Positions 10,718-62,464 of a stretch of DNA of 64,000 nucleotides are shown here, in pieces. A program made the position numbers and the translations under genes. The DNA lies in the IMG/VR virus record IMGVR_UViG_3300020214_000005, positions 33,936 to 97,935 of that record; one strand, 5' to 3'. The notes under the pieces were generated by a model that ran no database searches, had not been told where the DNA came from, and was given only the letters and a program-made list of their open reading frames with translations. How positions within the stretch are numbered: the stretch's first letter is position 1; the number at the start of each line of letters is the position of its first letter. The stretch comes from a virus.

Positions 10718-10767
10718 GTCGCCTCCCTGGGGGGCGAGATTACCGGATGGCTACTAACTAATTGGCG

Positions 10768-25958: not shown

Positions 25959-28900
25959 CTACCTCCCAGAGAACGGAATAGTTATCGTTTGCGTCTTGCG
26001 CACCTCAATTTTACTGCCATCGGGGGCTGTCCTGTCCTTGTACAAGTATCTTAACAGGTAGGGGTGCTTTATCTGGAGGATCTGCGGCGCACCCAGCTGC
26101 CCGAGGAGCATCTGTCCGACGAGGAGGGGTTTCGTCGGGTCCTTCTCCGAGTCCCAGATGTACAACTCGTCGAACAATTGCCTCTCAATGATGATGGGAA
26201 GTATCTGCTGGAGGTTCCACTGGATCTGTTCAACTATCCCTTCCGGCACGTGACGCCCGAACTGATCTTCCCTGTTCAGCACCCTTTTTTGGATGACTGG
26301 CAACGGTGCGAAGAAGTAGTGGCCGACGATGTTGTATCCCTTCTTGCGCCAGTCAACCAGGTCCTGGAACCCGTCGTTGAACTGTCCGCTGGTGTCGTAC
26401 ACGAGGTCAAGCCCCTCCTCCGTGGCGGCCCTCGCCATCACGGCTGCCACCTGCCGCGACTCTCGGTGCACCAGGCCGGACGCGCTCTCCAGCCTGCGCG
26501 CGTACCAGAGCCTCGTCTCGGGCATCATTATTTTTGCGTCGTCCGGATCCGCCACGATGGCGCTGTCGTAGTTCGGTATGCCCGCCAAACCCATGTTCCT
26601 CGCCGTGGACTTCCCGGTCCCTGATCCTCCCCCGAGTATGTAGGCGGTCGGTCTCTGCTGGTCGTTGGGAATGTCGCCCCTCCTCGCCCGCTCGAGACTC
26701 AACTCCACGTACGGCCTCCATAACTGCTCCACCCGGTCCTTGTCGCCCCAGGCCGCAAACAGGTCGTCCCCGCCCCTCGAGGTGCCCACCCTGTAGAACC
26801 CTGCGGTGTCGCTGCCCTTTTCGAGGTGACTCGGCGGCATCTTGCTTTGCACCGACAGGAGACCGAGCTCGCGTGGCAGCGAATCATCTATGGGTTTGTC
26901 CGACATGCCCGCCTCGGCGCCCGGTCCGAATCTCCAGGTGGATGCGGCGACCCTGTTGCCCCACGGCATCAACGGGTGGGGCATCTTGTTCGATCCAAGG
27001 AACAGCTTCCTCCCCGTGGCCCTGCGGATGTCGTTTATCTGGGCGATCATCTTCTGGTTCCTCACCCTCGCCGCCCGCGCAAGCATCCCGAGTCTTCTGT
27101 TGATCGACAGACTCAGGTCGCCGTACGGATCCGACGACGGATCGTTCTGCAGGTTTGCGACCGCCCTTCGTATCCACTCGGCATGGCCGAAGGCGAGCCT
27201 GTGCTGGCCCGCGGCTATCTCGGAGAGAGGAACCCAGCGAGCTCCCGACGCATCCGAGGCGGCGACGAGTTGCGTGTCCCAGGGGACGACGAACATTCCG
27301 GCGCCGACCCTCACCCCGTTGACGAACCTCGGGTCCCAGTCTGGGGCTTCCATGGCGCCGAGGTAATCCGCCTGCAGGGCGTTCTCAAGGGAAACCCCCA
27401 CCTCTTCGAAGGTCTCGCGGGTCGCGGTCGTCATGAGGTCCTCGCCATCGTCCTTCAATCCGCCGACGAGCGCCAAGGCATTCCTGTACGGGCCGCTCTT
27501 GCGCGTGATCATCGCTATCTCCGCCGTGCGAAGATCCAAGTCCCTCATCCTTATCATCACGGAGTCGGCCCCCTCGACGTAGATCGCGTCCTTGTTGAAG
27601 GACCAATTGCTGGTGCTCCAGTTGATGTCGTCTTCGGTGTAGTCAAGGTTGTGAAAGATGTTGAACGGCGATCCCATGGATATGTTGTCGGCGACCTTTC
27701 GCAGTTCCGATTCGCTCATATCGACGTCCCCGTAGACCCCCTCGAAGTAACGCCTCTGATCGACTTCTTCGGAGCGAGCGAAGTTCCCGACGATGGGCTC
27801 GATCATGTCGGCGAAGTTCCTCGCCATCCCCGCCTCGGCGTCGTCGGTCTCGTCCGGCATGTGCTCGTCGTTGTCGAAGTACAGGCGCATGCTTGACTTC
27901 AGTTTCGTGAGTCGCGTTTGTTCCGAGTTGTCGGTCACCATCGCGTCCGCCCTGTCCATGGCGTGCCTTATCGCCCCCAGGAGGTCCGCCGGTTCCTGGC
28001 CGTTGTCACCGAAAATGAGACGAGAGTTCGTTGGGCGCACGGCGTCCGCCGAGAACGGGGATTCCCCTCCCCTGAAGTCCACGGGGGAGATTTCATTGCT
28101 CGCCGCCATCAGTGAGTAGATGTCCATTAGGCGCTCGACCTCGTCGACCAGCTCCCCGTCGGTGGCCGTCCCCACGGCGACCGATATGCGTCGGTCCGAG
28201 TTAAACCACATCCCGTTCGCGAGGAGTTTGTTTCGCTTGAGGTCGTCACTTCTGTCCGTAGAGTTTGTTCTGGCGCGACTTGGCGACATTCCCGCCTCCG
28301 GACTCAACGGCATTCCGCTCAAAACCCTTGCCGTAGCAATTGTCGCCTCGATGACGTCCGGGCTTATGTTCTTTGATCGAAGCGCCTGTTTCACGCCGTC
28401 GTCGTTTTCGTTGCCCCTGAGCCTGTCGTTGAGAATCGCCAGGATCAGGTCGCCGAGGTCAATGAATTCGTTGCCTCTTTGCGAGGAGGCCTTGAGTGCG
28501 CCGATCAGCGCCCGGTGTGCGGCCTTCGTCCATTTGGTGGGTTTCGGGGAGGGACCGTCCTTCGGGGTGGTCACGCCTTGGAGGGCGTTGATCATGTTCT
28601 CTACCGAGATGTTCAGTCTTCTCAGGGCCGTCAAGTACGTACCAGTTTCGGGGTGGGTCATCACATATCTCCAGGCCCCCAACAGGAGGTGTCCTGCGTT
28701 TACATCGGGCGACCCCGACTTCGCCGCGTCCTCGTAGGCTTCCACGATTGAGAAAACTGTGTCGTTGGTGAACCGGGCCATCACCATTCTGGTCAGTGCG
28801 GACATGCCCGCCTCCGCGCCGGTTCCTCTGTCGCCTCTGTCGTAGGTCAGCTCGGGGAATCCGTTGGCGTCCAGCCATTCGTTGAAGGTTAAGAGCTTCG

Positions 28901-31900
28901 CGAATCTCTCGTCGTCGCTTAGCAGCGAGTCCTTGATCGGGTCTATCATCTCCCTCTTGTACCTCGGCAGCAAAATCCTCCGTTTGCGCGCCCGCTCGGT
29001 CGCAAGTATGAAGGGCTCCATCTCCCTGACGGCCTCGCCGAGCGTCTTGACCGACCCGTAGATGCCGCTCCGTATGTGCTGCTCGAAAAGGGTGCCCAAA
29101 GTATCCTGGGCCTCGGCGTAGTACCTGTTGTACCGGGTTAGGAATTCGCTCTGCTCGGGGGTGAGCTGACGAACATCGTCGGCGCCGTCGGCACCCGTGT
29201 GCCGTGCGATAATTCCCAAGAAAGTGACCCAACCGTCCTGGTCGTCGTGAATCTTTTCTACGACAGTCTGGCCGAATTCCAAATCACCGAACAGGGAATG
29301 GACGTGCGCGCGGGCGACCTCCTCCGCCAGCTTAAGGTGCGTCTCGTCGTTGATGGATCCGCTCTCTCGCAGGGTGTTCAGGAGTTGCTCTATGACATAC
29401 ATTTGTGTCTGGAAATCGGTCTGTCGCATCCCAATCCCAACCCTCATAGTGTCCAAGCCATTCTTGAACGCGGCGACCTGCCTGTATCCGATTTCCATGT
29501 TGGATCGGTGGGTCTGCAGGATGCCCTTGATCAGCGGTATCATGAAATTGTTTCTAAAATCGTTAGACTCAGGCCCGTCGGGTCTGCTCAGGATTGTGTG
29601 GGCCAAAGTCAGGTGCGGTTTTCCCCCGAACATTGTGATCACTTCGAGCGGTGACGTGATAAACATTTCTTTCATCGCATTGATTGACTCCGAGAAACTC
29701 TTGCCCGTGACGGGGTAGATGTCGTCCATTCGGTCCAGGTCCAGCCACGGGAAGATATTCTTCAGCTGACGAAGGACGGCGTCTTTCGTCACCGTTCCCG
29801 CTGGGATCCCTTTGATGATGGGCCCGATCCACTCGTCGAAGCGGTCCAGTTCGGCGACTGGGTAGCCCATTCCCAGAAGCCGTCCAAAAGCCCTTTTGAG
29901 CAACTGGCTCGGTTTCTCCTCGACGAGCGCGGCATCCTCGAAGGCAATCATCGACGAAACGTAGTCCGCGAACTCCTCGGGGTGCATCTCCAGTATCTGA
30001 TCGTCCCCGAGTTCACCGTAGGCGGATGCGGTCTCCCACCAGTACTTCCCCGGGGTCTCGTCTATCACGCGCTGCAATTCTCGTAACGATTCTCTTTCGG
30101 CGGCGAGTGCTTCGGGGGTGAGCGCTGAGCTCGCCGCGCCCGGCTCCGTGATCGGGTTTGTCTCATCGTTCCAGCCCGGCAGGTAAGGATTGCCATCCGG
30201 CCCGGAGTAGACGATGTTTGGTCCGTACATCGACCAGTACCCGTACGAGTCGACCCTTGGTCTCGCAAACCTGAACCAGTCGGTGTCGTTGTCGCCAAAA
30301 GGGTCAGACGACGTGGTGAGGGGCGTATGGAAGGGCGAGATCTTCCTCTTGTCTCGCGCGGCGATTGATTGGACAGCCTTCCTGTAGATGCTCGTGGCGA
30401 GCACGTCGGCGAGGATCCTCGCCAGAATCTTCGTCGACTCGATCATTTGCGTGGCTTGGCGCGCGGCCTCGCCACCCGACGATGGGTACAAACTGGACCA
30501 GGCCTCGGTCGGCAGTGCCTCCATCAAGAGCAGTCCTGGTTGCTCGGCCACCTCCTGCAAGGCCTTGAACAAGGAGTCGAAGGTGAAGGCGAACACTTGG
30601 TCATCCATCTCCCTCGTCGGGATGTAGAGCGGATCGCCCAGCATTCTCTCGGAGCCCGGCTCCTCGGGGATGTTAGGGGAGGCAGTGATATACGGGTTTT
30701 TCGGCATGATACTTCCGAACGCGTCCACCATCGGTTCAACCGCCGTGTACATGCCGTAGACCCAGTTGGCCATCATGATTTGCCTCGGCGTGAGGTTGTC
30801 GACTATCTTCTTGGCCTCGGCATTTCCCTCCAGCACTGAGCCGAGCAGGAGATTGGAGAACATGGGGACGCCTTGCAACAACGGTAAGTCGGTATTTGAT
30901 CCCGCTTCCCATGCCATCGTCCCCTCCGTCGTCGATGGCGCTATTTGGTCACTCGGCTGGTCAATGGTCCCTGTCGGGGTTGCCCCGAACTTGCTTCGCA
31001 GCAGGTTCCTTTCGTCCGTCGCCGCCATCATCGGGATGAGCAGGCGCATTACTTTCTCGTCGCCCGGTTCGAACATCGGTGGAGCGTCGACCAGGTTCGG
31101 GTTTCGCATGATCTGCTTCATCTGCCATAGCTTGAGGCGCAGTTCATCATTGACGTCCTCGGGAATTTCCGGCGCGGGGAGAATGCCCGATGCTACGCCT
31201 TCAATCAGGGTGTCTGTCCCAACTTCGACTGATTCGGAGGAGATGCGGTCCGAATCAGGGGAAAGTCGCCTGAACCATTTGTCGTAAATCGCCTGGAGCA
31301 TTCCCCTCAGCATCGGCATGATGCCTCTGTAGAGGCCGGTTCCAAGGAATTCTCCTCGTATCACCGATGGAACGGTGTCGAAGCCGAACAGGGGGAACGT
31401 TGAGTTCTCCTGACGCGTGGCTATATCGAAGTTCCTGAATCTCTTGGCCCGCATTTTCCCGGCATCGCCCTGCGCAACATCGCCAAGCATCCCAATGTCC
31501 ACATCTTCGGAAGCCAAGTCGTCGAGGTGATCACGAGTTGAGCCGAAAATTGCGTCGTGGGTGGTCTCGTCGCCCGTCGTGTTATCGAGGTATCCGCCCT
31601 CCAGCGCGAATGACGTCCAGAGGGATATCACCCGACCCAGCATCTGCATTCTTTCCGGGTCCTTCGCTTCGCCATCCACGCCCAAAGACGCAGGCGAGCC
31701 GGGGTTGATGAAGGGATCGGCAACGATGGCTGGTGGCATCTGAAGTTCCGGGTCCACGGAAGTGCCGTCCGCGCGAGTCGGCCTGTCCTCTCTCCAGTTG
31801 GCCGACGGGCCGTCCGACATCGGGGTGTTGTCGGGCAACCTGCGATTTGCCATTCCTGCCTCGGCCCCGCCATACGAGTCGTACGCATCGTCCATCCGCG

Positions 31901-34900
31901 CTGACCCGCGGGCCGATGCGAGTATCGAGTCGAGAGTCTTCGCGCCGATTCCGTATTTCTTCATCAGCGCTCGTTTTGAGACGCCCGACGAAAAATCGGC
32001 CATCACTGCATCCCCGTTTTTCGCTATCCACTTCGGTGACCCGACCACTTCGGGCAGTAGTCCTTGCTTTCTGAGTTCGTGCAGGGAGTTTCGGACGGTG
32101 TTCGGGTTGAACCCGGTGGCGTCGATTATGTCCTGTTCCCTGAACCCCGACGCGGCGAGGATCTCCACGACGCCCTTCCTGCTTCGTGGCGCGATCGACG
32201 AGGCGAAAGCCGCTGCGTCCTCCTGGGTTATTTCCTCCAGCCCGATCTGGTCGTAGAAGCGATCGATCGTTCCGTCGTTGAGCAGCTCGGACACCTTGTC
32301 GGCCACGAACTGGCCGTTGGGCATCTCCGCCGCCGCCGCGAACGGGTCTGATCCTTCGTTGATGGCGGCTACGACCTCTCCGGAACGGTCCCAGGTCGAG
32401 GCGAGCCAATAGAAATTGCCGGCGTCGGCGTCCGACTGTGGGATGTCAGATGGCCACACCTCGGAGGCGGTCCTGCCGAAGGCCCGTGCCAAGCGCTCGG
32501 CTTCCGTCGGGGAAACGGCGGCGCCGTCCCTTCTGAACTCGGCGATCACCTCGAGGGGGGCGCCAAGGAACCGGCTCAACGCCCTGTCGGACATCTGCGA
32601 AATCCCCGGCACGACGGACGCGAGCGCGGATATCTGGTTCTGGCCGTTGCGGACCATGTCGGCCCTCTCGAGGCCCCGGGAAGCGTAAATCGGACTTCTG
32701 CCGTTTGCCGTGATCAGTTGCCCACCGAAGGCACCCGTGGTGGTGTCGTTCCCCGAAATCATCCTGGCCAAGGCAGGGTACGGCCCGTCCATTGATCCGA
32801 AATCCTCTATCTGTTTCTGCAGCTTGGACAATTCGTCGTTGACGCCCATCCTGCCGAGGGAGTTGAATGCCTCCTCCGAACCCAGCCACGTCTGCCTGTC
32901 GCGGAACGTCATGAAGTTCCAGTCGAAGGGCAGGGGGTTGTGCATGTCCGACAGGATCCTCCTCGGGGGCGCCGAGGCGGAGATGAGCTGGGCCACGTCG
33001 TCCGACACGCCGAAGGCCACCGGGATGGAACGCGGATTCAGTCTCATCAAATTGTTGAGCGATATCGCCGAGTTCAGCTTTTGCGTCGCCCGGTCGGATG
33101 ATCCCTTCGGGGTGAAAATCGAATCGAGATACAGCGGACCGAGGTTCCTGAGCTCGGGGAATCGGTTGTCCGTCATTCGGCGAACCGATGCCTCGCTGTA
33201 GGCCCCGGACAAACCCGATGCGTACGATTGGGCCATCCTCAGGATGTTGCTGGTTTTGCTGAGCAGGGTCTCCGTCGCTATGGCGTCCGAGACGTCTTCT
33301 GGCTCCACGCCGAACAGGCGGGCCGTCGCCGACACCGGGTTGAAAATCGCGAAGTATTTGGCGTTGCGGATTGCCTCGGCGTACATCACGAGGGCGGCGT
33401 CTATGTCCGCCTCCTTGACTCCGTTGGCCTGCATGGCGTCGGCGATCCCGTCGACCATGACGTCCTCGATTATTCGCTTGGTCAGGCTGGGCAGGGAGTT
33501 GATGGCCAGCTCCGAGAAGCGCTTGTAACGAGCACCCATGATTTTCCTTGTCGTCGCGTCGGCCTCGGCGTCCGCGATCATCATCAGGACGGCCGTGCTC
33601 TTGGCCTGCTCGATTTCGGCAGGGCTGCCGAAGCGCATCTGCGGAACGACCCTGTCTGGTTTGCCACGGCGAAGGGTCGCCATCGCCGTCCTTATGTCCG
33701 GGATGCGTTCCATCTCGTCGACGTTGACCCTCGAGAGGATTTCGTTTACTTTGGCTATCTCGGCGGCGAGTCTTTTTTCCTTCGTGGAGAGGAGGACCCT
33801 CTTGTCTGGGATTTGGATCCTTTCCGTTCCGACGATCCCGAATCTGGTGCGACCGACCGACATGCCACCAGCGGGTTCGTCCGACAGGCCCGACGGGTCA
33901 TCGGCGAGGTGCGAAAGGGCGTTGTTCACTCCTCTGACCAGTCTCATGCCCGCCTCGGCGTCCCTGCCGGTTAGTTTGGCCGCCGCGCGGATCTCTTCAA
34001 TTCGCTCTTCTATCTCCCCTCGTTCGATTTCGTTGATGGCCCTCGCCCTCGCGGACGCCTCAGTTTCACGGCTAAGATCCGCGATCAGGTTCGTGGCCTG
34101 GTAGATCGCTGGTTGTATCGTGAAATAAAACTTTTGAATTTCATCGACGGCCTGCTGCGGCGTGATCTCGCCACGCGCGGACTGCCTGAAGAGCTGGTCT
34201 CGATGCCGGTTGTACGAGTCGAGTAGCACCCCCCAGGCGGAGTAGGTGGCTTGTATCCTGGCCCTGATTCTGTCCTGGTAGTTGACGCTTAACATTTTCC
34301 AGTGCTGCTCGAGGTGGCGCAAGCGCTGGTCTAGCCTGTGTATTTCGCCCCGGATGCCGCCCGTCGAGTTCAAGGCGATGTCGTTGAGCACGTTGTTGAT
34401 TTTCGTGAGGGCGACGGAATTGAAGCGGGCCTTTGCCGCTGCCTGGGCCGCGGAGTACAGGGATTTGAACTGTGCGTCCGAAATGTTGTTATCCCTCGCC
34501 CACTTCCTCAATCCCGTCAGAATGGCGTCGGGGTGGAAATTGTCCCCGTCCGTGGTCTTCGCGACCGCGGCGATCTCGTATTCGTCCATGAGATTTCCCG
34601 ATGTGAACATGCCCCACCAGGACTGTCTCGCGACATCGCTGGCCTTGGCCGAGGAGTTGGCGATCTTCTTCTGCTTTGCCAACTTGTCTTTCGAGATGCC
34701 GAGATTGGCGATCGTGTTGGGGTCAGGGTAGCTCTCTAGGCTCGGGAACGGGCTTACGATGTCCGGGTCTGGGCCCAGGTCTTCCACGTCCTGCAAGAGT
34801 CGCGGCTGTTGCTTATGGAGGGGGTAGTCCGATCCGATTTTGAGGAACTGATCGGCGACTTCTCGGACCACCTTGTCGAGGTCCATGGAACCCGGGTCAC

Positions 34901-37900
34901 TCATCACCTCTTCTGTGATGAAAAAACCGTACTTGCTCGGATCCTTCTCGTAGTGCTGGCCTCCGAGGATCCGCGAATACCTGTTCGCCTGTGAGAGCCA
35001 ATCATGGAAGCTCGGGAACAGTCTCTTGTGTTGATCGATCGACTTACCGATGGCCTTGACTGCTGGGTGCTCCGACGGGTCCCCGGTAAATTCCCCTGCT
35101 TGGTCCTGCCGGATGGAGTTGTTCGGCTGACCTGGGTCGTAGTTTAGTTTGTAGTTCAGGAGATCGTCCCCGACACTCATTTGGAAGTCGTCCCGGGTTA
35201 TGTTGAACGAGTAACGAACCGGATCACGACCGTGTCTGATGTCCTCGATTGGGAACATGTCCTCGCCCAGCGTCATGTGGAGCAGCAGGTACTCCTTCAG
35301 CGCGGCGAGGAAGAAGTTCGCTCTTGCTTTGTTCTGGTCGTCCCTAACGACGTATGGGCCGTCGGGGAAGTCGAATGGCGCGTTGGGCATCCGCCTGATC
35401 AAATCAAGCGTCGCGTTCTGGAGCGCCTGGAAGATGAGCTGCGAGGCAGAGTATGAGCCGTCCTTCCTCTGACGGATCGCAATTTCGTCAGGGACGTCTC
35501 CCTCCTGCGCGCGGAAGAAGGCGGCCAACGCCTTCATCGCGTAGTCGTTCTCCTCGGGCACCGAGATCCGTGGAACGGTTGTGTCCCCGCTCGTGTAGTC
35601 GCCGCTTCTTATGAGGTCATAATCGTCTTTGCCGAACAGCGCGACAGCGGTTTCTTCGGGCAGGTCCAAATTTTCGTTGTTTCCCTGTTGGTCGCCGAGA
35701 GCCATCCCGGCCTCGGCACCGATACCCATGTACCTGTTAAAGTTCGCCTCGGAATCCGGTAACGCCCCCGATCGGAATTCGCCCCAAGACAAGACCTCCC
35801 CATCGGTTTCCGCCTCGGCGATCCTCCGGGCCCGCGCCGCCGCCCCGTACTCGGCGGGATCGTCGAAGGTTTCCGAGCCACCGGAGAAGAAATAATCGAT
35901 TATCTCGCTGTAATGCTGGCGTTCCTGCGGCGTAAGCAAGGACGGTTCGAGGATCTTCTCGCCGAAAGCCCCAGCTAGGGCCTCGTCCGTCCTCGAGAGA
36001 ACGTCGTCAAAGGTCCTCTTGGAGCCCTCCGTTCCGAAGGTCAGCATCATCATGCGCCTTCCTAAATTGTCGATCTTGGCCCTCGTTTGGGCAATCGGGC
36101 CCTGTTCGAGCCTTGCCTCGTAAGCTTGCCTGTCCATCCTCTGCAGGATTGACGGGATGATGTAGTTGTCTCTCAGTCGCTCGAGTTGTGCGTCTGACAG
36201 CGCTCCGATAATTTTCGCGGCGGAATCGGGAGATCCGTCATAGGTTCGCAGGAGTTCCGCAAGATTCGGCATCGCCGCTTGGCCATCCGCGGGTTCGGTG
36301 ACGACTTGGACCATCTCGTAGCCTCTTCCCTCCTTCGGGAAACGGTCAATGACGTCGCGGGCCATTCGCCGGCCCCCGTCCCGTTGCGACCGAAGAACAC
36401 CGATCGCCTTGGCCCGTAGTGAGGTCAGCCTTTCTGCGTCGGCGATCTTCGGCGGCAACAGGGGGACGATGAAGGTTCCCTGCGAGTTTCTGCCCATTTC
36501 CCACAACACATTTACGAGGGAGGCCACATTCTCCTCATTCGGCTCCATTTTCGCGAGAGCCCGTGAGACGGCACTATCGTCTTTGGCAAGGATCGCCGAG
36601 ACCAGGTCCCTGACAGGCACCGACACAGATTCGTCACCGAGGACACGTCTAACCTGGTCCCCGAAGAACCTATTTTCCGCGGGCTCGCGATCCGCCAACT
36701 GCCTCACGCCGAGCAACTTTCTCGCGACGGTGGCGAACGATATCGCCCGCAACTCGTTCTCGGTCAGTTCTTTTGCCTCGGGCGTCAGGATTTGAGCGGC
36801 CGACAGGGACGTGAGTTGTGCGTCGTTGAGCGAGGCGACGAAGGCAACGAGGGACTCCGAATCAAGCGGGGTTATGGCGTCGGCCATGGCCAGTTGAGCC
36901 ATGTGCACCGGGGTCGGTATGTATTCGCCGCGGACGCCGGACATGCGATCCGATGTCTTGGGTGCAGGAGTCTCCCCGGTGATGAGCTCGATCAACCGGC
37001 CCCTGTCCAAGGCCAGAGCCTGTAGCGCCGCCCTGGCTTTGGCCTTAACCGGGGAAACCGCATCGATGTCCGACGGTGTCACTGTTAATTCGCCCTCGGC
37101 CGGCAGTAGGTCTTCCCACAAATTGACGTTGAGGTTCTGGAGCAGTTCCGCATCGGTGAAATTTTCCGCGGACTCCGCCATAAGCTCGGGTTCGTCCAAC
37201 GCCATTGTCATTTTCGCGGCGTTGTACATGACGGCGTAGGGTGAGTTCAATCCACCTTCGGTCATATCCAATCTCGCCTGCGAGACAAAATCGGCCACAC
37301 TCTTCCACATTTCATTTATTTGTGAATCCGACAGTCTGTCTATGTAGGGCTCCAATCCCCCCATTTGCGACGCCGCCGACCGCATGTAAAAAGGCGAGCG
37401 CTGGTCGGTGACGCCCCGCGTGATGAAATCAAGGAAACCGCCGGGTTCCGCCATCCCCAGCAACCTTCGTCGTCGCACCTCCACCGCACGCATCGCGTAG
37501 TCGCCCTCGTCGCTGAGGGTTGCCACCCTGCTCAGCTCCCTAGCTCGGCGTTCGGCGACGACCCTCCCCCTGATCCCGTCCATCGTGGGACCGACCATGC
37601 CTGCCTCGGCCCCGTCCACCGGCTTGGGCAGGTCGATCATGTCGTAAAAGTCCGGGAATCTCCCGGTGACCTTGTTCCTGATCGCCGAGTCCGTCAGGTA
37701 GGAGTTTCCCATCAGTTGCTCGGAGATGTCGGCGCCGCTTGCCAACCCGTTTTTTGCGCTGAGGGAGCGAACCAGGCTATGGAAATCAGCGCTGTCCCTC
37801 ACGCCCATCAGCCTTTTCAGGTTCGAAACAACTTTTTCGGTTTTGTCCCCCGCACCGACGCCAACCTCGTCCAAAACTATGTCAAGAATGTCGTCGATGG

Positions 37901-40877: not shown

Positions 40878-40950
40878 TTTTCCCGTTCACTCGCGCTCTG
40901 GGCGCGCTTTTAGTACCGATAAGAATACCCCAACAGGAGCATTCGCAGAG

Positions 40951-50944: not shown

Positions 50945-50949
50945 TGTGT

Positions 50950-53706: not shown

Positions 53707-53912
53707 CGGCTATTCCAGATTTCGCGCCATTCTTCCAGATTGTCGTCGTTTATGATCGTCGGCTTCTGTTCGGGTTCGTTGACCTGCAACCAACCCCACT
53801 CGTACGGCTCGAGGGAGGAGTTCCGCACCACAACCTTGTACCACGTCGTCTGGCCGTCCTCGGACATGATGTAAAAATGGCCTCGGTCTGTAACGAAAAC
53901 GCGCTCACGCAT
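53703..53912 (-). CDS. 69-aa protein after the 2845-aa ORF
   Basis: Short gap after the upstream stop; ATGA overlap with the next gene. Confidence 0.6.
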   Translation of the reverse strand: MRERVFVTDRGHFYIMSEDGQTTWYKVVVRNSSLEPYEWGWLQVNEPEQKPTIINDDNLEEWREIWNSR

Positions 53913-53926
53913 GGTCTTGGGTCCCC

Positions 53927-56900
53927 TTATTGCCGGACGGAATCCCAGTCAAGTTTCAATGCTGGCACTTTGCCCAACATTCTCTCCAGCCTAGCAAAAT
54001 GCTCCTTCGCTTCCGGTGTCAGGTTCCGCACCGCCACGTCAACGGACCCGTCCGGAATTATCCGTTCCAGCATTTCCATCATCTCCTCGACTTGCTGGAG
54101 TTGTTTCACGCTGAGCGCCTCGCGGAAACGCTCGGCGTAGAGGGTCAGAACGCGGGCCTCGGCGACGGCCTCAAAGATGTTCGTCTGCCCGTACTTCGAC
54201 GACCTGCCCAGAACCCGCATGACGTCGTCGGTCGGCACGCCAAGCGTCGAGGCGAACTTGGAGTCGTAACCAAGCACCTGATCCATGATCCGCTTGTGCG
54301 TGGCCAGGAACTCTTCCGGCGTTTGCCCCTCCAGCACCTCCGTCACGATCTTTCTCACGTCCTCGGGCCCGAGGAACTTCGTTTCGTCCGAATTGTCGTC
54401 CAACGCGAGGAAGAAACTCCCCACTTTTTCGGGCATTTTGTTCCTTGCGATTATCGACCGTTTCTGGTCCTCTGTCAGGTTCTCGGGAAACGTGCCCGCA
54501 AACGGATTGGCCGCCGTGTCGTCGTATGTCTGCAGCGCGTCCACCATCCTGCTGAAATTGTCTGCCGATACGTTCTTTCTTGTGGATCCCGCCGTTCCCA
54601 TGGTCTCCATTAGTCGTTCTCGCATGCTTTCGCCAGTAAAACCGCCACCTTCTTTTCGGCGTTGGTCCCGAACTTGATTCAACCTGTAGAGGCGCTCGAC
54701 TATCTCGTTCATGGAGTGGTCGAGGGGCGGAGCGAGGTGGACCCAACTGATGTCGTGGGTTTTCTGCGACTCTTGTACGTCAACCCACTCCTCGGGTGTC
54801 GCTTCGATAACTGAAGCGTGAGTTTCCAAGTTCGCTGGGTCTCGTAAGGGATTCGTCTTGGCGAATGTCTCCCGAACGTCGTCCCAGGTTGCATCCTGCG
54901 GAAAATTGTGTCTCCGGGCGATCTCCGTTCCCATCAGGCTTTTGTCAAGGCGGCCGTCCAGCTGCTCCGACAACGGAGGCGCGTCCCGTCCGACCTGCAA
55001 CCCGAGGCTCGAGTACCACGTTTTGTAGTGCTCCAAGTGCGCGTACTCGTGCACGCCGAGCCCGAAGTGATAATCGTCGGCGCCGGCGAAGCGGATAACT
55101 TCAGACAGACCCTGCCCCTTGGACAACGGGCCTTCGTCGGATCCGAAGAACAAACTCGAGTCGAAGGCCAATATGGTGGGATTCAGCGTTACGACGAGCT
55201 TGACCTTGCCGTCTCGACCGAGTTCCGTTTGCGCATATCCGGCAAACTTTCTCCAATCCGACTTGTCGTTAATGTGCATTCTGATGGTCGTGGCCCGCCT
55301 CAGTGACGGGTCCTTCTCCAGTGCCGGCTCGGCCCCAGCCAAAACATCGAGGAACCCCTGCGCCATCGCCTCCCTGACCTCCCTCCTTCCCTCCTCGGTC
55401 TGGGCCAGCTCGAGGGCCGCCAGTTTGGCCGCCCCCTTCATGTGGTTGAGTTCCCTGTCCTCGAAACTGTCATTCGGGTCGGGAATCTGATCTTCTTTGC
55501 CGTCTTGTTCGGCGGTCCTCAGGAAGTAGTCCATGGCTTGGTCCAGTTGCTCGCTGAACGTCATGGGCGTGCCACCGGGCCACGACCATCCGCTCTCGCG
55601 CGCGACGCCCATGTTGTCCATGAGCTCGTCCGCATAGGACTCAACTGGCTCGCCGTGCCTGCCCGGTGCGTACTTCTCGACGAGGGCCTTTCTCTGCTGG
55701 GCGATCGATGCGGTGAGCGCGTCGGAATCCGCAGTCACTTGCGTCAATGTCTGCGAGTCCCTTGCCGAAAATGGCGGCGGCATCGCCATGACGGTCTTTG
55801 CGTCGGCATCCGTGTCCCTTTTGAGCGCCGGACCGTTACGCCTCTCCATTTCTGCGTTTACTGCGTCCGCGCGGGACATCGCCCTCCCCGCCTCCGCCAT
55901 GCCGGCCTCTGGGCCGAGACCAGGTTTGTCCCTTCGCCCCGGCGGAACCAGGTCCCTCCTGTAGTGCACGACCGCTCCGTCCTCGGCGAACAGCCTGTCC
56001 GCGCTCTCGAAGTTGACGAGATCTTTGGCGGTGGCGCGAGTCTCGAATTTGCCGTCCCCGCCCTTTCTGTAGAGCGAACCGATCCTCTGCCTCTCCTCCG
56101 TGGAGAAGATCTCCGGCCTGTCCCGGAGCGCCCTGTCGATCACGCCGATGAAGTTCTGCTTGGACTTTTCGTCTTGCCACGTGAACCCGTTTCTGGCCCA
56201 GTGGGTTGCCCCCGTCTGGAAGACCATGTCCGGCATCTCCGGGTTGTCGGAGTCAGGCAACGACGACGAGGTGCCCTTCAGCGTGATGCTCCTTGCCCCG
56301 ATCGCCTTGTAAATGTTCTCGTTGCGGGCGTTGAACTCGCTGGCGAGACCCATGCCCCGGTATTTATCATAGACGACGATATCGGCGTGCTCTATCTCGA
56401 TGTCGCCGTGACTGTTTACGTTGACGAAGTTCGTGGCGTGCCCGTAGAGGACTTTGCCGTCAGGCGAAGTGAGTTCCATGGGTATTTCTATCCTCAATCC
56501 ACCGTTGCGGTTGGCGGTCACATGCGACGGGGAATTCCTCACCCTGATGCGCACGTCGCGCACGCCGGCATTTTCCCTGTCCAACCGGAAATTTCCCGAG
56601 AAAAGCTTGTTCATCGCCCAATAGATGGCGGCCCTCTCCTCGTAGATGGCGTTCTTCTCCGCCGGGGTCTGGCCACGCCGATGACGCGCGCCACGGGCAG
56701 CGTTCGCGAGACTGCGTCGCGCTTCGTCTATCTCGTCTCGCTTCGTCGAGACGACGTCCGCGTGTTTGCGCACTAATCTGCCGTAAGTGCTTCCCCCTTC
56801 TCGGCGTGCTCCAGCCATGCCAGCCTCGGCCTGGGAATCTAAATCCCTTTCATTTCTTCGCAACGCCCTATCCAGCAAAAAGCTCGCTCGCTGTTTGCTT

Positions 56901-59900
56901 ATTTTCAATTCGTCAGCAATATCCTGGACTTTTCCACCATTGGCCCGTATTTCCAAGATCCGGTTATCGCGATCATCAAGTTTTCCAATATTTTGAAGTT
57001 TTCGCCGCTCCGGCGTTTTATCGGCCATCAACCATGCGTCTCCAAAAATCTCCATGGGGTTAGCACCAAGGGCCGAAACAACAAGCCTGTCGGCGTCGAA
57101 CGGCTCAATCGACGCGTCTGGTTCGTGCATCTTGTCAATAATTTCCCTGGTAACCCCCAAAACCGATGCCTGTTCATCTCGATTTTTGCGGCGCAATCTG
57201 TCAAAATTCAAAATTTCCTGCGCTTTAAGTGCTCCGCCCTTTTTAATTTTATTTGACGTAAACCAGTTATTTCTGGCCGGCAACTTTTCGTTCGGTACCT
57301 CGCCCTGCGGCAGGCCCATTCCGGCCTCTGCGACGTCGCCGCGCGGTCTCCCTATTCGCCGACCCACCTCGCGCGCCCTCCCCCTAGCCGAATCGACGAT
57401 CCCCTCGCCCATTTCGGCGAGCCTTCTTCTGTTTTCGGGGGTGTTGATTCGCTCGTTGAAAAGATCCGCCGCTTCCGAGAAAGCCCTACCGAGTTGTCTC
57501 CTTGCTCCGTCCGGAAGGCCGTCCGGGGCTATTCTGTCGACGGCCGCCATGGCCCTGCGCGCTTGTTCGGCGTCTATCTTCCCTCGCTTGAGCAATTCGT
57601 CTATCGTGAATTCGGCGAGATCCCTTCCGCCTCTTCTCGCCGCCTCCACCGCGACGTAGGTAGCCGCGCCGGCGGGCCCCCCGGCGCTGAACGCCGTTGC
57701 CAATCCGAGGCCTATTTTAACTTTTTCCTTGGTTTCCTCGTCCGCCCCGGTTCTTTTCAAAATCTTGTCAAGCAACTTGGCCAGGGCGCGGTCCCTCAGC
57801 GTTCCCCTTGTCACCCTTCCGACGGTGCGAGACCTGTCGCCGCTTGCCATCCCCGCCTCCGCGCCGATCCCGGGACGATCCTGACGGCGCCATTCCTCGT
57901 TGAACCGATTGGACTCCCGCCTGATGATTTCTTGGTCCCGGCGAGACAATCTTCCCAACATCCCGGCATCCGCGCTGCCGACCATCCCGCGATCCCTGTA
58001 TCCGTCTCTTCGGGCGTCGTAATAACCGTCTCCGTCGTCCACCGAAATGAGTATCTCGTCACCGCTATCGTTGACCATTCTGTGGAACCTGCCACCGCCC
58101 CGGTTTCTCTTCCTCGGTCCTGTCTGCCGTCCGCTCCCCTGCCCGTCGTCGCCCAATCTGCCGATGGGCCTGCTGATCTGCTGGAATTGCTCTCTCTCCA
58201 GAGCTTCAATGAGATCGTCCGGTCGGTCGTCTTCTCCGGCCTTCCTCGCTCGCTCGTACCAAACGTTCTTGAACGTCACCACCCTCCCGTCCTTGTAGGT
58301 GACCCTGAGATCGCCGTTTTTCGGATCGTAGATAATCACTCGCGCTAGATCAGAATTTTTGGTGTCCACGAGCATCAGATGCGCTGCGGCTGTGCGCGGT
58401 GGATTGTCCGGATCGTCCGGGCGCGCCGCCGTCGGTTTGCGCTTGGATGCGCGGTCGGTGGGGACGAAGCCGTGGAGCTTCAGATCCGCCATGGCCTCGC
58501 GGTTTCTTCGGTTAACGTAGACGGTCTCTCCGGTTTCCTTATTGGTCATCCGAATCTGTCCGTCCGCCGAACTACCGTCGAGGAACTGCATGTTCCTCTC
58601 CTCCATCTCGGTGGACGAACCTTGGTGCGCCCCTTCGGGGCCGAGCGCCGGCGGTTCGTTTTTCGATATGCGCTCCTCCAATTCCCTGGATTCGCGCGAC
58701 AACCGATTGTTTTCCGCGTCCGCCTCGTTCAAATCTTCGTAGGCCACCCTGTACTCCGCCCACGCGGCCGGGTCGCCGTCCCCGCCCCTGTCCGGGTCGG
58801 ATCCGGTCCGTCTCGCTCGCCTGAGGGCGTCGTCGTGGCGAGTTTCGGCTTCCGACACTCGGGCCCGGCTTCGGGGAAGTTCCTGCGTGCGGATTTCAGT
58901 CACGCGTAGCCGGTCCCTTTCCCTACCGGGTGGTATTTCCGAAGATTCGGGGGCTTCAGGGACCGTCGCCACCGGTACGGCGGACTCGTCGTCGTCGAAT
59001 AGTTCGCGCATCCTTCTTCCCTTGTCGGCGTCGGCTCTTCGTCTTTCCGGAGAGACTCGATCGGCGTCGGTTTCGGGTCTGACCGTCGGCTCGACGAGAT
59101 CGTCGTCGGTCTTGGGTCTGACTGGTCTCTTTACTCCCGTGCCGGTGACCCTTGGGGGAGCCTCGGGTTTTGGTCCGTCAACATCCTCAATAACAACTTC
59201 TCGTCCACGCCTGCCAGTGCCCGGGACGTCCGGCCCCACGCCCGAACCCCTCAACCTGCCCGCATCCGGAGCCGGTGGGACGTCGCCCGGGACGTCCGGG
59301 TCGTCGGCCCTCGGGACGGTCGGAATCGTTGGTCCGGTGCCGGGGCCCAGGAGGATCGGAGGCCTGCCGATCGCGGCTCCCCCGCCGCCACCCGGGGCTC
59401 CCCCGCCGCCACCCGGGGCTCCCCCGTCAAACGGCCCAAAACCCTGGTTTGATCCCCGCGGCGCTTTTTTCCCGTAGAGCCGGTACACCTCGTCCTGCCC
59501 GACGTACCTCGCGACCAAGGTCATAAACGTGTTTTCATCAAGGTTGTGCGAGTTCCTTTCCGTGTCGGCGAGGAACTCCCGGATCTCGGCGAGCGCCCCC
59601 TGTTTGTTCAGGTGGCTCCTCAGCTCGGCGGCGAATTCGTAGTCGTTCTCTCCCGCGTACGTCCCGCCGATGAACCCGTGAAGCATATTCGAGACGAGGT
59701 TGTCGAGGCGCGCCTGGCCGAATGGGGTGTCAACATCGCCCGGCACGAGACTCCTCGGATGCACAGGCTGATTCGTAGCACCGGATAAGGGTCCCAGCCT
59801 GCCATCTATTAAGTTGAACGGTGTCGTATCCCGCCTACCGGTGAGCGGGTTGTACGGAAACTCAAAACGTCCCTCGTCCTTGTTCCATCGTCCCAGCGGC

Positions 59901-62464
59901 GTGTCCAGGAAGTCCCTCCAGAAATTGAGTAACGGAATTCCGTGTTCATCCGTGTAGCCCCGTATCGCCAGCTCTTCCCGGATCTGCTCGAGCATTTTTG
60001 CCTGCGCTTCTTTGCTGAGGCGTTGGCCGCCGTGGCGTGGCGCCTCGTTTGCAAGCCATCTGGCGAAGGCCGATTCAACCTGCGAGTCGAACTGGATGTT
60101 GAACATGTAGAACTCCCACAGCGCCTTCTTCTTTTCGTAGGGAGTCTTCAACGCAGCGGGGTCCAATACTTGCTGTAGTTTCTCGATCTGCTGCCCGAGG
60201 TAGGACACGGGGCGATAACCAAAGATCTCTCCGCTCGCGTCCTTTTCCGCGAGCCGGACGTAGTCTCTCCCGAGGTCGATTCGGTCTATCCACGACCCCG
60301 ACGCCGGGTCGAATCTCTGGCGCGACAGCCTCTCCTTCCATTCGGCTTCTCCGTACCCCGCGGAGGAGGAAAAATACCCGAGCTTATTTCCCAGCCTCTG
60401 CGCGAAATCGTCTATGTGGCTCAACTCGTGATCGGCTGTGTGCATTAGGAAGGCTTCCCTTTTGGGGTCCATGCCGAGATGGTCGAAGCTGAATCCTGTG
60501 AGACTGTCCTTCTGGTATTGGCTGTCGGCGAACCACTTCGGGTCGATGGTGATGGTCGCCATGAACGGCACGCTGTCTCCTGAGTTAAGCAACCACAAGG
60601 GAGTCGCTCCGTTAAGGTGGTCTAGAGGCTCCGATCCGGGATTATAGGGAAACGGGGTCATGTCGTCGAGGTGCGGGCGTTCGACGAAGCCTTCGTCGCC
60701 GAAGAAGCCGGTCACGGCCGTGATCACGGACGCATCCTTGAGATTTGAGTCGGGGGCCGCCGACCTGTCGCGCCAATGCTTGATCCGTATAAACGTCGGG
60801 ATCACCTCAGCGAAGCGCTTCTTGTGCTCGGGGTTGTCGGTTCCGTCCGGCAGCTTCGCTGGGCCGCCCGTGTTCAGCATGCCTTCCGCCGTCATGAGCA
60901 TATACTCGGCGAGTCGTTCCGCCGCTTCTTTCCGTAACCTTTCCTTCGCCCTGTCCGACTTCTGGTCGAACATCAAGCCATTATTCTCCGGGGCGTGGAC
61001 TATCTGCTCGACGATCGCCTCGAAGAGGGTCAGGTCATCCCTTATTGCGCCGTTGACGACCGCGGTGTCGGCCCCGCCCATGAAACTTCCGATGGGCCTG
61101 CGGTAAGCGTCCACCAGTGCGTTGCCCTGCGCGTCCTTGAAGGAACCCGTCCATCCATGGTGTCTAACGAACTGGTCAATTTGCTCCCCGGGGTGCGGCG
61201 CCCTTCCCGTTCGCAACTCGAAGTCTGCGGCCCATCGCTTGTGTTCGTCGGACCCAATGAACTCTTCGAACATTCTCCGTATTTTCTTTGCTCTCTCGGT
61301 TGCCCTTTTTTCCCGCTCTCTTTGCTTGTTCCTCGACACCAACGAACGCAGGCCGATAAATCCGAATCGCTCCGAGCGTCTGGCCGCTATCGTGTCGATC
61401 ATGCCCGCGGCCGGGTCGAGGTCGTTGGGTCTGTCGGCCTCGTAGTGCGGTGTGTGCCCGCCCCTCACGCCGGTCAACCTAGCCCTCAGCCTCTCGGCAA
61501 GGCTCGGGCGCGAGCCCGGCACGTCGGGGCCGTCCGCGGCGTCGGCGAGTTTCTCCCTCGCCCCCTCGGCCCTACCGACGATCTCGTCGACCGGACCCGG
61601 CACATCAACCACGCCCCGGACCGCCCCCACGACGTTCCCCAGTATGTTGGCTCCCGGCACGTCGCAACCCGTCCCGAAGATATCGGTGAACCTGTTGGCA
61701 TTGGGGCCCGACCCGCAACGAATCTTGTTCAGCTCGTCCTTCCACAGACCCCTGGCCCTGAGGATGGCGTCCATGACGTTCCTCGCCATGTCCCTAATCT
61801 CCCTGCCGAGGATTCCCTTCTGCTCGAAAGGGGGCATGCTCTTCGTCTCGGGCTCCGGGGCGAAGGCAAGCGCGGGGTTTACCTCGGGCACACCCAACGC
61901 TCTCAGCCCTGCGTCGACCACTTGCTCTACCCCGTACTCATCCTGAGAGTACGAGTCGTCGTTTATGTTTTTCTCGCACAGCGTCACGCTTCCGTAACCC
62001 GGCATCATCGGCGGGAGGGGGTCCCCGACCTCGTACGACGCCGCCCAGTCGAGGAATTTTTTCGGGATGAACGGGAGCATCCGCGCGAACGGCTCGTCTG
62101 GTAAATCCTCCCCGGGTGGTTCGGGCTCGGCGACGGGGGATCTCGATTGCTTGGGTTTCAGCGCCTTGGTCATCGCAAACGACGCCGACCCGCCCTTGGC
62201 GGCGACCGCCGTGAGTCGCGCGTCGGCCCAGGCCGAGTTGTGCCCGGACCCGTACGTGCCCGATCCGACGTCCCTGCTGCCGTCGAGGAACATGCGGTTC
62301 CTGGCGTGATCCACGAACGCGATACGCCCGTCCTTCAGGGCATACACGAACGTCGTTCCGTGTTTTGCGACCATTTTTGCGTTGAGCGGAACGTTGAACG
62401 GGGTTGGCGACATCTGCCCTTGATCCTCTATTCCCGGGGGCGGGATTTGACAATTACAAAACAA
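53927..62464 (-). CDS. 2845-aa polyvalent protein: two zincin HExxH domains, KTSC-like, HTH and GNAT modules (start may be slightly downstream)
   Basis: HELSH...EFAAE; IIYDP.NG.L.VTYKDG; sigma-4-like HTH; YRGMGLAS...GATHWARNGF; HEYAH...EAVAE; six AGM linkers. Confidence 0.85.
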   Translation of the reverse strand: MFCNCQIPPPGIEDQGQMSPTPFNVPLNAKMVAKHGTTFVYALKDGRIAFVDHARNRMFLDGSRDVGSGTYGSGHNSAWADARLTAVAAKGGSASFAMTKALKPKQSRSPVAEPEPPGEDLPDEPFARMLPFIPKKFLDWAASYEVGDPLPPMMPGYGSVTLCEKNINDDSYSQDEYGVEQVVDAGLRALGVPEVNPALAFAPEPETKSMPPFEQKGILGREIRDMARNVMDAILRARGLWKDELNKIRCGSGPNANRFTDIFGTGCDVPGANILGNVVGAVRGVVDVPGPVDEIVGRAEGAREKLADAADGPDVPGSRPSLAERLRARLTGVRGGHTPHYEADRPNDLDPAAGMIDTIAARRSERFGFIGLRSLVSRNKQREREKRATERAKKIRRMFEEFIGSDEHKRWAADFELRTGRAPHPGEQIDQFVRHHGWTGSFKDAQGNALVDAYRRPIGSFMGGADTAVVNGAIRDDLTLFEAIVEQIVHAPENNGLMFDQKSDRAKERLRKEAAERLAEYMLMTAEGMLNTGGPAKLPDGTDNPEHKKRFAEVIPTFIRIKHWRDRSAAPDSNLKDASVITAVTGFFGDEGFVERPHLDDMTPFPYNPGSEPLDHLNGATPLWLLNSGDSVPFMATITIDPKWFADSQYQKDSLTGFSFDHLGMDPKREAFLMHTADHELSHIDDFAQRLGNKLGYFSSSAGYGEAEWKERLSRQRFDPASGSWIDRIDLGRDYVRLAEKDASGEIFGYRPVSYLGQQIEKLQQVLDPAALKTPYEKKKALWEFYMFNIQFDSQVESAFARWLANEAPRHGGQRLSKEAQAKMLEQIREELAIRGYTDEHGIPLLNFWRDFLDTPLGRWNKDEGRFEFPYNPLTGRRDTTPFNLIDGRLGPLSGATNQPVHPRSLVPGDVDTPFGQARLDNLVSNMLHGFIGGTYAGENDYEFAAELRSHLNKQGALAEIREFLADTERNSHNLDENTFMTLVARYVGQDEVYRLYGKKAPRGSNQGFGPFDGGAPGGGGGAPGGGGGAAIGRPPILLGPGTGPTIPTVPRADDPDVPGDVPPAPDAGRLRGSGVGPDVPGTGRRGREVVIEDVDGPKPEAPPRVTGTGVKRPVRPKTDDDLVEPTVRPETDADRVSPERRRADADKGRRMRELFDDDESAVPVATVPEAPESSEIPPGRERDRLRVTEIRTQELPRSRARVSEAETRHDDALRRARRTGSDPDRGGDGDPAAWAEYRVAYEDLNEADAENNRLSRESRELEERISKNEPPALGPEGAHQGSSTEMEERNMQFLDGSSADGQIRMTNKETGETVYVNRRNREAMADLKLHGFVPTDRASKRKPTAARPDDPDNPPRTAAAHLMLVDTKNSDLARVIIYDPKNGDLRVTYKDGRVVTFKNVWYERARKAGEDDRPDDLIEALEREQFQQISRPIGRLGDDGQGSGRQTGPRKRNRGGGRFHRMVNDSGDEILISVDDGDGYYDARRDGYRDRGMVGSADAGMLGRLSRRDQEIIRRESNRFNEEWRRQDRPGIGAEAGMASGDRSRTVGRVTRGTLRDRALAKLLDKILKRTGADEETKEKVKIGLGLATAFSAGGPAGAATYVAVEAARRGGRDLAEFTIDELLKRGKIDAEQARRAMAAVDRIAPDGLPDGARRQLGRAFSEAADLFNERINTPENRRRLAEMGEGIVDSARGRAREVGRRIGRPRGDVAEAGMGLPQGEVPNEKLPARNNWFTSNKIKKGGALKAQEILNFDRLRRKNRDEQASVLGVTREIIDKMHEPDASIEPFDADRLVVSALGANPMEIFGDAWLMADKTPERRKLQNIGKLDDRDNRILEIRANGGKVQDIADELKISKQRASFLLDRALRRNERDLDSQAEAGMAGARREGGSTYGRLVRKHADVVSTKRDEIDEARRSLANAARGARHRRGQTPAEKNAIYEERAAIYWAMNKLFSGNFRLDRENAGVRDVRIRVRNSPSHVTANRNGGLRIEIPMELTSPDGKVLYGHATNFVNVNSHGDIEIEHADIVVYDKYRGMGLASEFNARNENIYKAIGARSITLKGTSSSLPDSDNPEMPDMVFQTGATHWARNGFTWQDEKSKQNFIGVIDRALRDRPEIFSTEERQRIGSLYRKGGDGKFETRATAKDLVNFESADRLFAEDGAVVHYRRDLVPPGRRDKPGLGPEAGMAEAGRAMSRADAVNAEMERRNGPALKRDTDADAKTVMAMPPPFSARDSQTLTQVTADSDALTASIAQQRKALVEKYAPGRHGEPVESYADELMDNMGVARESGWSWPGGTPMTFSEQLDQAMDYFLRTAEQDGKEDQIPDPNDSFEDRELNHMKGAAKLAALELAQTEEGRREVREAMAQGFLDVLAGAEPALEKDPSLRRATTIRMHINDKSDWRKFAGYAQTELGRDGKVKLVVTLNPTILAFDSSLFFGSDEGPLSKGQGLSEVIRFAGADDYHFGLGVHEYAHLEHYKTWYSSLGLQVGRDAPPLSEQLDGRLDKSLMGTEIARRHNFPQDATWDDVRETFAKTNPLRDPANLETHASVIEATPEEWVDVQESQKTHDISWVHLAPPLDHSMNEIVERLYRLNQVRDQRRKEGGGFTGESMRERLMETMGTAGSTRKNVSADNFSRMVDALQTYDDTAANPFAGTFPENLTEDQKRSIIARNKMPEKVGSFFLALDDNSDETKFLGPEDVRKIVTEVLEGQTPEEFLATHKRIMDQVLGYDSKFASTLGVPTDDVMRVLGRSSKYGQTNIFEAVAEARVLTLYAERFREALSVKQLQQVEEMMEMLERIIPDGSVDVAVRNLTPEAKEHFARLERMLGKVPALKLDWDSVRQ

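Follow-up and report, generated by a model that had tools for sequence, protein, structure and literature searches.

Why would a tailed phage keep, next to its capsid gene, reading frames of up to 4972 amino acids (aa) in which the same four residues come back again and again? The question is raised by a 64,000-nucleotide stretch of viral DNA (positions 33,936 to 97,935 of IMG/VR record IMGVR_UViG_3300020214_000005, hereafter the window), which is the final 64 kb of a 97,935-bp contig, 65% complete according to CheckV, from an uncultured actinobacteria-type phage. Five large minus-strand open reading frames (ORFs), here called E, D, C707, B and A, lie between the contig end and the gene of an HK97-type capsid protein, and three of them hold the string Glu-Ala-Gly-Met (EAGM) 15 times in all, A having ten of the copies, E four and C707 a single one (Table 1). 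The answer that we consider moderately probable is that the giant ORFs encode cargo polyproteins of the head module, which would be docked by an N-terminal tag, cut at the EAGM junctions by the prohead protease Peptidase_S78 and delivered, module by module, together with the DNA.

A Recurrent Peptide and Its Lineage Dialects

A sequence-only reading of the window had listed the 15 EAGM sites and six variants, and each of them is indeed found at the position that it gave. Composition would predict 0.19 copies of EAGM in the 11,311 aa concerned, and 2000 shuffles never produced more than three; the string is the commonest 4-mer of the window's giant proteins, AEAGM is their commonest 5-mer, and a six-frame translation of the whole contig contains just one EAGM besides the 15. 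In this genome, the junction reads (A/P)-E-A-G-M-(A/S/G).

The capsid protein has 367 relatives in IMG/VR, the nearest cultured phages being Brevibacterium phage Cantare and Gordonia phages GMA6 and Gray (43-46% identity). Giant ORFs lie upstream of the capsid gene in many of these relatives and EAGM occurs in few of them; each lineage has instead its own over-represented short peptide in its giant ORFs, which we call its dialect. Once collinear orthologues are aligned, the motif at shared joints reads [EDS]AGM in relative G002, [DNSE]AGM in G001 and P-[TV]ASM in G003, and for 12 of the 14 polyprotein sites of the window, one or more collinear relatives have a motif at the aligned place, each in its own dialect. 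The two sites left over are A aa 2308, a new one placed 31 residues upstream of a degenerate EPAGGM, and E aa 2186. More distant lineages use I-SGRM, I-[ST]G[KR]M, I/L-TGAM, TGSM, P-IGKM, G[VM]RS or R-LSSG; further motifs met in database proteins and distant lineages are ISGNM, PSGSM (P-SGSM, 10 copies) and TGRM (8 copies). The zeta-toxin-like kinase module of chain A is preceded by the local dialect in seven relatives (L004, L005, L006, L020, L040-type, L014 and L059). Family-wide, the junction comes down to a small residue, Ala or Gly, any residue, Met and another small residue. As judged from these alignments, the motif lies at borders between modules, in positions that the relatives have kept, and it changes in concert within each lineage.

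The sequence-only reading had compared EAGM with the S/A/G-X-E sites of phiKZ-like phages (G-x-E, cut after Glu). We do not favour this analogy and have set the cut after Glu aside, because Glu is not kept in relatives, where D, N, S, T or I takes its place; what persists is the small residue-x-Met core.

Peptide or Nucleotide Signal

Is the conserved object the peptide, or the DNA that encodes it? Within the window, the Ala of EAGM is written with all four codons (GCG, GCC, GCA and GCT) and the Gly with three (GGC, GGG and GGA), which had already been read as a sign of selection at the protein level. The relatives strengthen this point: codons switch synonymously, also within the six-fold families, with Ser written as AGC or TCN and Arg as CGN or AGR; in G002, the closest relative, most of the Glu codons at these sites are GAA; and 9-24 distinct junction codings are found per genome. 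Because codons switch in this manner, and because a Shine-Dalgarno-like core is rare at the same joints in relatives (7/27 in G002, 3/29 in G001, 0/12 in G003 and 0/14 in G005), the conserved object is the peptide, not the DNA.

The window genome itself has a peculiarity that calls for a different explanation to be weighed. All 15 copies read GAGGCNGGNATG, which places a Shine-Dalgarno-like GAGG five bases before an ATG, and Glu is encoded by GAG in 15/15 copies versus 67% for Glu-Ala elsewhere in the same ORFs (P ~0.003). EAGM could then be the protein shadow of an internal ribosome-binding site (GAGG-N5-ATG) from which the modules, every one of which begins with Met and a small residue, would also or instead be made as nested products. 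We find this very improbable as an account of the motif: the peptide is kept in relatives whose joints mostly lack the core, the spacer is fixed as Ala-Gly while its wobble positions are free, the base before GAGG shows no bias towards G (5/15, as expected from Ala codon usage), and the variant joints MAAM, AAGM and AGGM of the window have no GAGG. A Shine-Dalgarno-like element at a fixed distance from the internal ATG, present at 15/15 sites here yet at few or none in relatives, is not a conserved feature.

Prohead Protease and Shared Tag

If the junctions are cut, the relatives point to a candidate enzyme. Peptidase_S78 is present in all eight of those checked (G001, G002 and G005-G010), in ORFs of 789-4580 aa, with its catalytic His and Ser columns kept and usually at the head of a sister polyprotein; together with DUF6321, it opens the 4580-aa chain of G002 (aa 26-183) and likewise the 4384-aa polyprotein of G001. 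Seven of the eight carry their own lineage's motif downstream of the domain, at what would be the protease's own maturation site: AAM then EAGM in G002, SGRM in G005, TGAM in G006, LSSG in G007 and G009. The domain shares ~40% identity with the proteases annotated for capsid maturation in Cantare, GMA6 and Gray, which are also the cultured phages closest in capsid protein, and the protease sequences form two groups that track the Met-type and LSSG-type dialects. Since the relatives' own versions of the peptide sit at the same joints and just after this head-maturation protease, the junction peptide is most likely, on present predictions, a cutting signal.

The chains also share a tag of ~45 residues (core DADLDxxVLEGxPxINxGRGxPDPTP), found once per chain and in the first module of A (4972 aa), B (1869 aa) and D (918 aa), as well as in the protease chain and the 1870-aa chain of relatives; E (2845 aa) carries none. 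An AAM-type joint comes after the tag, and in G005 the junction motif follows it directly. Run against 1.84 billion representatives, a profile of the tag retrieved 38 clusters (E <=1e-10), which with two exceptions are 850-6391 aa long and which all have the tag near the N-terminus; tag-bearing database proteins again show private motifs (EAGM, TASM, SGRM, ISGNM, PSGSM, SGAM and TGRM). A conserved N-terminal tag of this kind would fit capsid targeting. In the capsid protein, aa 1-70 (a delta-like region) are almost invariant across lineages with widely differing cargo chains; this region is a candidate docking surface for the tag.

We can thus picture the following course of events. The tag would dock each chain inside the assembling procapsid, trailing a string of unrelated modules (ClpC-N-like, NUDIX, zeta-toxin-like kinase, modules with a zincin-like HExxH motif and many unknown folds); the protease itself would come in as the first domain of a sister chain with the same tag and junctions, as in relatives; once assembly is over, this HK97-type prohead serine protease would cut the junctions, and the modules freed inside the capsid would be delivered with the DNA. 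Cleavage, the bond cut, the acting protease, packaging and delivery are all steps that we infer. The virion-loaded polyproteins of the sequence-only reading are supported in part, by the conserved joints, the selection on the peptide, the dialects, the association of S78 with the motif in relatives and the tag; the analogy with cutting at Glu is not favoured.

Modules and Cassettes

In the five giant proteins and their orthologues, Pfam and PHROGs annotated few modules, most matching nothing, and a PDB profile search with E returned nothing significant. Among the labels first proposed, those of the Clp-N, NUDIX, zeta kinase and HipA-like kinase domains stand; the GNAT and the zincin have weak leads, namely an HExxH at aa 2472 of E and language-model neighbours scoring 0.82-0.88. 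Clp-N, NUDIX and Zeta_toxin domains thus occur in a single ORF that adjoins an HK97 capsid gene, which is the arrangement of a polyvalent protein. MuF was seen fused to the portal in relative G005 only.

That the motifs fall at domain borders, as first claimed, agrees with the predicted structures. In an AlphaFold model of A aa 3990-4972 (five sequences, low confidence, mean predicted local distance difference test score, pLDDT, of 50), which we used for linker positions alone, sites 4022, 4194 and 4655 coincide with pLDDT minima that separate better-folded blocks; with the C707 site, which ends a linker, all four sites tested in models lie in low-confidence linkers. A gap-boundary test on a MAFFT alignment of E was uninformative because the gaps were fragmented.

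We then cut the chains of the window and of four relatives at their own dialects and compared the pieces module by module (BLAST): window modules match modules of the relatives from first to last residue. One 177-residue cassette, E 1539-1715, is 86% identical to a module of G001 (Table 1) although its flanks are only ~46% identical to that genome, which suggests a recent exchange of cassettes at junctions. None of the four relatives has a counterpart of E 1716-1882 or of E 2189-2845, and the latter sits behind a joint present in the window genome alone; by this comparison, cassettes are gained and lost at junctions.

These data also bear on the possibility that the motif is never cut and that the chains act as intact giants, in which it would be a conserved peptide for linking or docking, for instance a hinge or a spot bound by a chaperone or packaging factor. 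Cleavage is so far a prediction; the N4 virion RNA polymerase, a polyvalent protein, is packaged uncut according to the relevant passage of Iyer et al. (PMC5512222); and the motif is more uniform within a genome than a loosely specific protease would require. A hinge, however, would work without a fixed string of four or five residues that shifts in concert from one lineage to the next, and an uncut linker would leave open why the motif follows the protease domain in seven lineages and directly follows the tag in G005, and why new cassettes arrive with new sites. We consider intact chains unlikely.

Weighing the Cargo Polyprotein Reading

Several observations weigh against tag-docked chains cut by S78. 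Peptidase_S78 was not found on the window's contig (65% complete); in relatives, its gene lies upstream of the part that this contig retains. Met-type lineages have nearly identical protease domains despite their differing dialects, so that the protease domain alone does not obviously explain the uniformity of each genome at the variable positions. The capsid protein contains no EAGM in the window genome and no dialect copy in relatives, and the usual link between capsid and cargo sites is therefore missing. The model of the C-terminus of A is of low confidence, conservation in 20-residue windows around the sites is not clearly below that of the background, and the all-GAG bias described above hints at a nucleotide-level effect in the window genome. 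No cultured phage has this architecture, and the reading as a whole is a prediction from sequence comparison and models.

As for the capsid protein, its one string similar to a junction, GANM, is the same in all lineages regardless of dialect. A capsid cleavage site carrying the dialect was looked for and none was found; QLSS (in LSSG-type lineages) and GANM (in all) are merely suggestive.

A capsid protein without the dialect would also agree with junctions that are cleaved by another enzyme, either a chain-embedded HExxH (zincin-like) module or a host protease, in the cytoplasm or after injection. The window holds four HExxH modules (at E aa 679, E aa 2472, D aa 466 and in the truncated chain 62682-63998), and those of E aa 679 and of the truncated chain, the two that were checked, are kept in orthologues. 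Language-model neighbours of the C-terminal module of E are metallopeptidase clusters (0.82-0.86), and zincin domains were proposed for such a role in the processing passages of Iyer et al. 2017 (PMC5512222). On the other hand, the HExxH modules have no Pfam match and one of them is unique to the window genome, whereas the junction code is family-wide; S78 was present in every relative checked, and in seven of the eight the dialect comes after it; a host protease would leave unaccounted for the dialect differences between relatives whose capsid proteins are 76-91% identical. We judge cutting by such an enzyme to be rather unlikely.

A more elaborate scenario, distinctly unlikely in our view, would make the motif a private, fast-evolving cleavage dialect in which 20-30 junctions are re-coded in concert, to escape host sensors that act as protease bait or to block cross-processing by co-infecting relatives; in the window genome, it would double as an internal ribosome-binding site and yield both a packaged polyprotein and free modules. 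Protease-bait loops in host immune sensors have reportedly been shown of late for the cyclic oligonucleotide-based antiphage signaling system (CBASS) and T4 gp21.

Comparison with Known Systems

How does the proposed tag-docked, S78-cut cargo compare with what is known? T4 gp21 cuts at I/LxE and SPN3US gp245 at AXE, in head and ejection proteins and in themselves (PMC12991175, PMC10052503). The likeness to T4 gp21 (with IPI-III/Alt and their capsid targeting sequence), phiKZ gp175 and SPN3US gp245 lies in a phage head protease of the same fold class (here in relatives) and in a short motif recurring in many proteins, which is known here from sequence alone; self-cleavage of the protease, removed N-terminal targeting pieces and cargo delivered with the DNA are the features of these phages to which we liken our system (PMC10052503, PMC12991175). 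In those phages, however, the substrates are separate genes with one N-terminal propeptide each, whereas here we count up to ~13 modules per ORF and up to 4972 aa (6391 in relatives). Their x-x-Glu is replaced by a core of small residue-x-Met that drifts between close relatives, the protease heads a chain, the capsid protein has no junction motif, and the system is predicted from genes. The many modules per ORF, the chain-fused protease, the Met core and the rapid, concerted change of consensus are what, from the genomes, sets the predicted system apart.

Polyvalent proteins (Iyer, Burroughs, Anand, de Souza and Aravind 2017; PMC5512222) share with our chains, in the parts of that paper bearing on them, unrelated conflict-type domains in one polypeptide, a place adjoining head genes and a zincin-like HExxH; for them too, processing into units and delivery upon infection have been predicted. 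They have 2-15 domains, with a zincin metallopeptidase named as the likely processing enzyme, and most modules here match no family. The cleavage and linker passages of the paper mention no recurrent junction peptide, lineage dialects or shared N-terminal tag. Our literature searches on phage polyproteins, prohead-protease motifs, DUF6321 and actinophage capsid targeting found no paper describing this system.

True polyproteins are known from eukaryotic viruses: African swine fever virus (ASFV) cuts pp220/pp62 at Gly-Gly-X, poxviruses cut core proteins at Ala-Gly-X, and picornaviruses have their 3C sites. One ORF giving many products, a small-residue consensus at module borders and products in the particle core (here proposed) would be common to both. 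The enzymes differ, being clan CE cysteine proteases or 3C there and an HK97-type serine protease here, and so do the carrier, a tailed phage, and the modules, effector-like and not structural.

Among cultured phages, Cantare, GMA6 and Gray come close in capsid (43-46% identical) and S78 (~40%), and they have cargo-like genes between portal and capsid (an RNA ligase, a VIP2-like ADP-ribosyltransferase and ~1000-aa proteins). Unlike here, these cargo genes are separate, and the protease is a stand-alone protein of 417-455 aa whose gene adjoins the capsid gene; no recurrent junction motif was found in Cantare and Gray. We found no near-identical DNA in cultured phages, and no protein of theirs covering more than 31% of the protease-tag region. 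Cargo-like proteins of Gray (L002, 13041-17044) and Cantare (L001, 7662-10784) have a common N-terminal string, W/M-G/Y-x-P-Y/I-G-T-P/V-I-T, which may be a targeting tag of their own.

If the junctions are cut, these phages would have a true polyprotein strategy, otherwise known from eukaryotic viruses. The best-sampled relative spends ~18,000 codons, ~45% of its 117-kb contig, on tagged chains and their head-module neighbours. The chains count some 30 junctions and dozens of modules, most of them without a match to known families; should the reading be true, they would amount to a large and unexplored store of enzymes that are injected to act against the host and its defences, and tag, junction and protease would make up a natural toolkit for loading chosen proteins into capsids. 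The junction code would let unknown domains be delimited from sequence, and the lineage dialects would be a rare natural experiment in protease-substrate co-evolution.

Gene Order and Neighbouring Genes

The remainder of the head module was retrieved for four relatives. In G002, a 740-aa ORF at the portal position is followed by the 4580-aa chain, ORFs of 548 and 626 aa, the 1870-aa chain, then E-like, D-like, a small conserved gene, C707-like, B-like, another small gene, A-like and the capsid gene. The C-terminus of the 1870-aa chain is the counterpart of the window's truncated ORF 62682-63998, which matches this protein and a 1807-aa one of G001 at 69% and 53% identity, respectively. A has collinear orthologues of 5251 aa (G002), 5348 aa (G001) and 5254 aa (G003).

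Table 1. Features of the window (positions in the window; joints are named by chain and residue).
Feature	Position	Strand	Evidence or remark
Polyprotein A, 4972 aa, ~12-13 modules, ten EAGM sites	25959..40877	-	Directly upstream of capsid gene
Tag in A	40395..40559	-	Sequence comparison and profile search
MAAM joint after tagged first module of A (EAMAAM, 39308)	39306..39317	-	
EAGM joint, A aa 708	38745..38756	-	Aligns with EAGM (G002), DAGM (G001)
EAGM joint, A aa 873	38250..38261	-	Alignment with relatives
EAGM joint, A aa 1091	37596..37607	-	Alignment with relatives
EAGM joint, A aa 1722	35703..35714	-	DAGM, NAGM, TASM in same column of three relatives
EAGM joint, A aa 2308, window genome only	33945..33956	-	Relatives' site ~29 alignment columns (31 residues) downstream
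Degenerate AGGM (EPAGGM, 33863), ancestral position of joint neighbouring aa 2308	33861..33872	-	DAGM, NAGM, TASM in relatives
EAGM joint, A aa 3006	31851..31862	-	MAGM, DAGM, TASM in relatives
EAGM joint, A aa 4022, before Clp-N module	28803..28814	-	Alignment, profile match, AlphaFold
Clp-N (ClpC2-like) module	28290..28805	-	Profile against PDB, ClpC2/ClpC N-domains, 9p2p, E 6e-5
EAGM joint, A aa 4194	28287..28298	-	Alignment; pLDDT minimum 26
EAGM joint, A aa 4348, before NUDIX module	27825..27836	-	Alignment, Pfam
NUDIX module	26907..27827	-	Pfam, A aa 4454-4571
EAGM joint, A aa 4655, before zeta-toxin-like kinase module	26904..26915	-	Alignment, Pfam, AlphaFold
Zeta-toxin-like P-loop kinase module	25962..26906	-	Pfam Zeta_toxin, A aa 4738-4910
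Polyprotein B, 1869 aa	42305..47914	-	Tagged N-terminal module, GPMAAM joint, large C-terminal body
Tag in B	47075..47239	-	Sequence comparison
MAAM joint after tagged first module of B (GPMAAM, 46723)	46721..46732	-	
C707, 707 aa, conserved core protein	47904..50027	-	One EAGM
EAGM in C707, aa 431, between two folded domains	48726..48737	-	Doubtful as site
CotH/CtkA/HipA-like kinase fold in C707	47907..48668	-	Predicted structure
Polyprotein D, 918 aa	50950..53706	-	Tagged N-terminal module, GPMAAM joint, body with HExxH at aa 466
Tag in D	53440..53604	-	Sequence comparison
MAAM joint after tagged first module of D (GPMAAM, 53331)	53329..53340	-	
Polyprotein E, 2845 aa, 7 modules, four EAGM sites	53927..62464	-	Orthologues 2815 and 3781 aa
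AAGM variant joint after first module of E (DPAAGM, 61402)	61400..61411	-	AAGM in G002, MAGM in G001
DAGM variant (SADAGM, 57961), E aa 1499	57959..57970	-	
EAGM joint, E aa 1536	57848..57859	-	SAGM in G001
Cassette E 1539-1715	57320..57850	-	86% identical to G001 module; absent in G002
EAGM joint, E aa 1713	57317..57328	-	NAGM in G001
EAGM joint, E aa 1880	56816..56827	-	SAGM in G002 and G001
EAGM joint, E aa 2186, before C-terminal module unique to window genome	55898..55909	-	
Further polyprotein, C-terminal 438 aa, cut by contig end	62682..63998	-	Conserved HEFFH
Major capsid protein, HK97 fold, very conserved N-terminal delta-like region	24290..25624	-	Pfam PF05065, E 2e-42

C707 deserves separate mention, as it is a conserved core protein of ~40 relatives and not a cargo chain; no homologue was found in cultured phages. 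It has a CC motif near its N-terminus, and its AlphaFold model comprises a domain at 221-404, then a linker (pLDDT <50) and a kinase-like C-terminal domain, whose fold matches reach Z 13.6 and 13.3 over 215-232 aligned residues (Foldseek E 4e-5). Its EAGM (48728) ends the linker and the kinase fold follows, in keeping with the border that had been claimed there. As a polyprotein site, it is doubtful: the position reads EAGL in the TASM lineage and is unrelated sequence in other lineages, and it may not be a functional joint because it does not co-vary with the dialect.

A Cys-Cys(-Pro) motif lies in the first ~25 residues of both A and the C707 family (40800-40877 and 49940-49997, minus strand), and CCPGC is present in the protease chain of G002; metal binding or lipidation may be its role. 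DUF3721 occurs both in a 316-aa gene (40951-41901, minus strand) and at the N-terminus of A (aa 40-74). In most relatives, both pieces have their homologues in small genes of their own, or in a single gene of 417 aa, immediately upstream of that of the capsid protein, and chain A therefore looks like the extension of a conserved small head gene. A 191-aa Cys/His-rich protein (49990-50565, minus strand) that matches no known family is kept in 38 relatives (57-63% identical), its gene being invariably just upstream of the C707-like gene.

The head module is followed by plus-strand genes of an SNF2 helicase (15534-17477) and a C5 DNA methylase (19763-21142), and the G+C content of the window falls from ~0.68-0.70 to ~0.60 near 12 kb (1-12000 versus 12000-64000).

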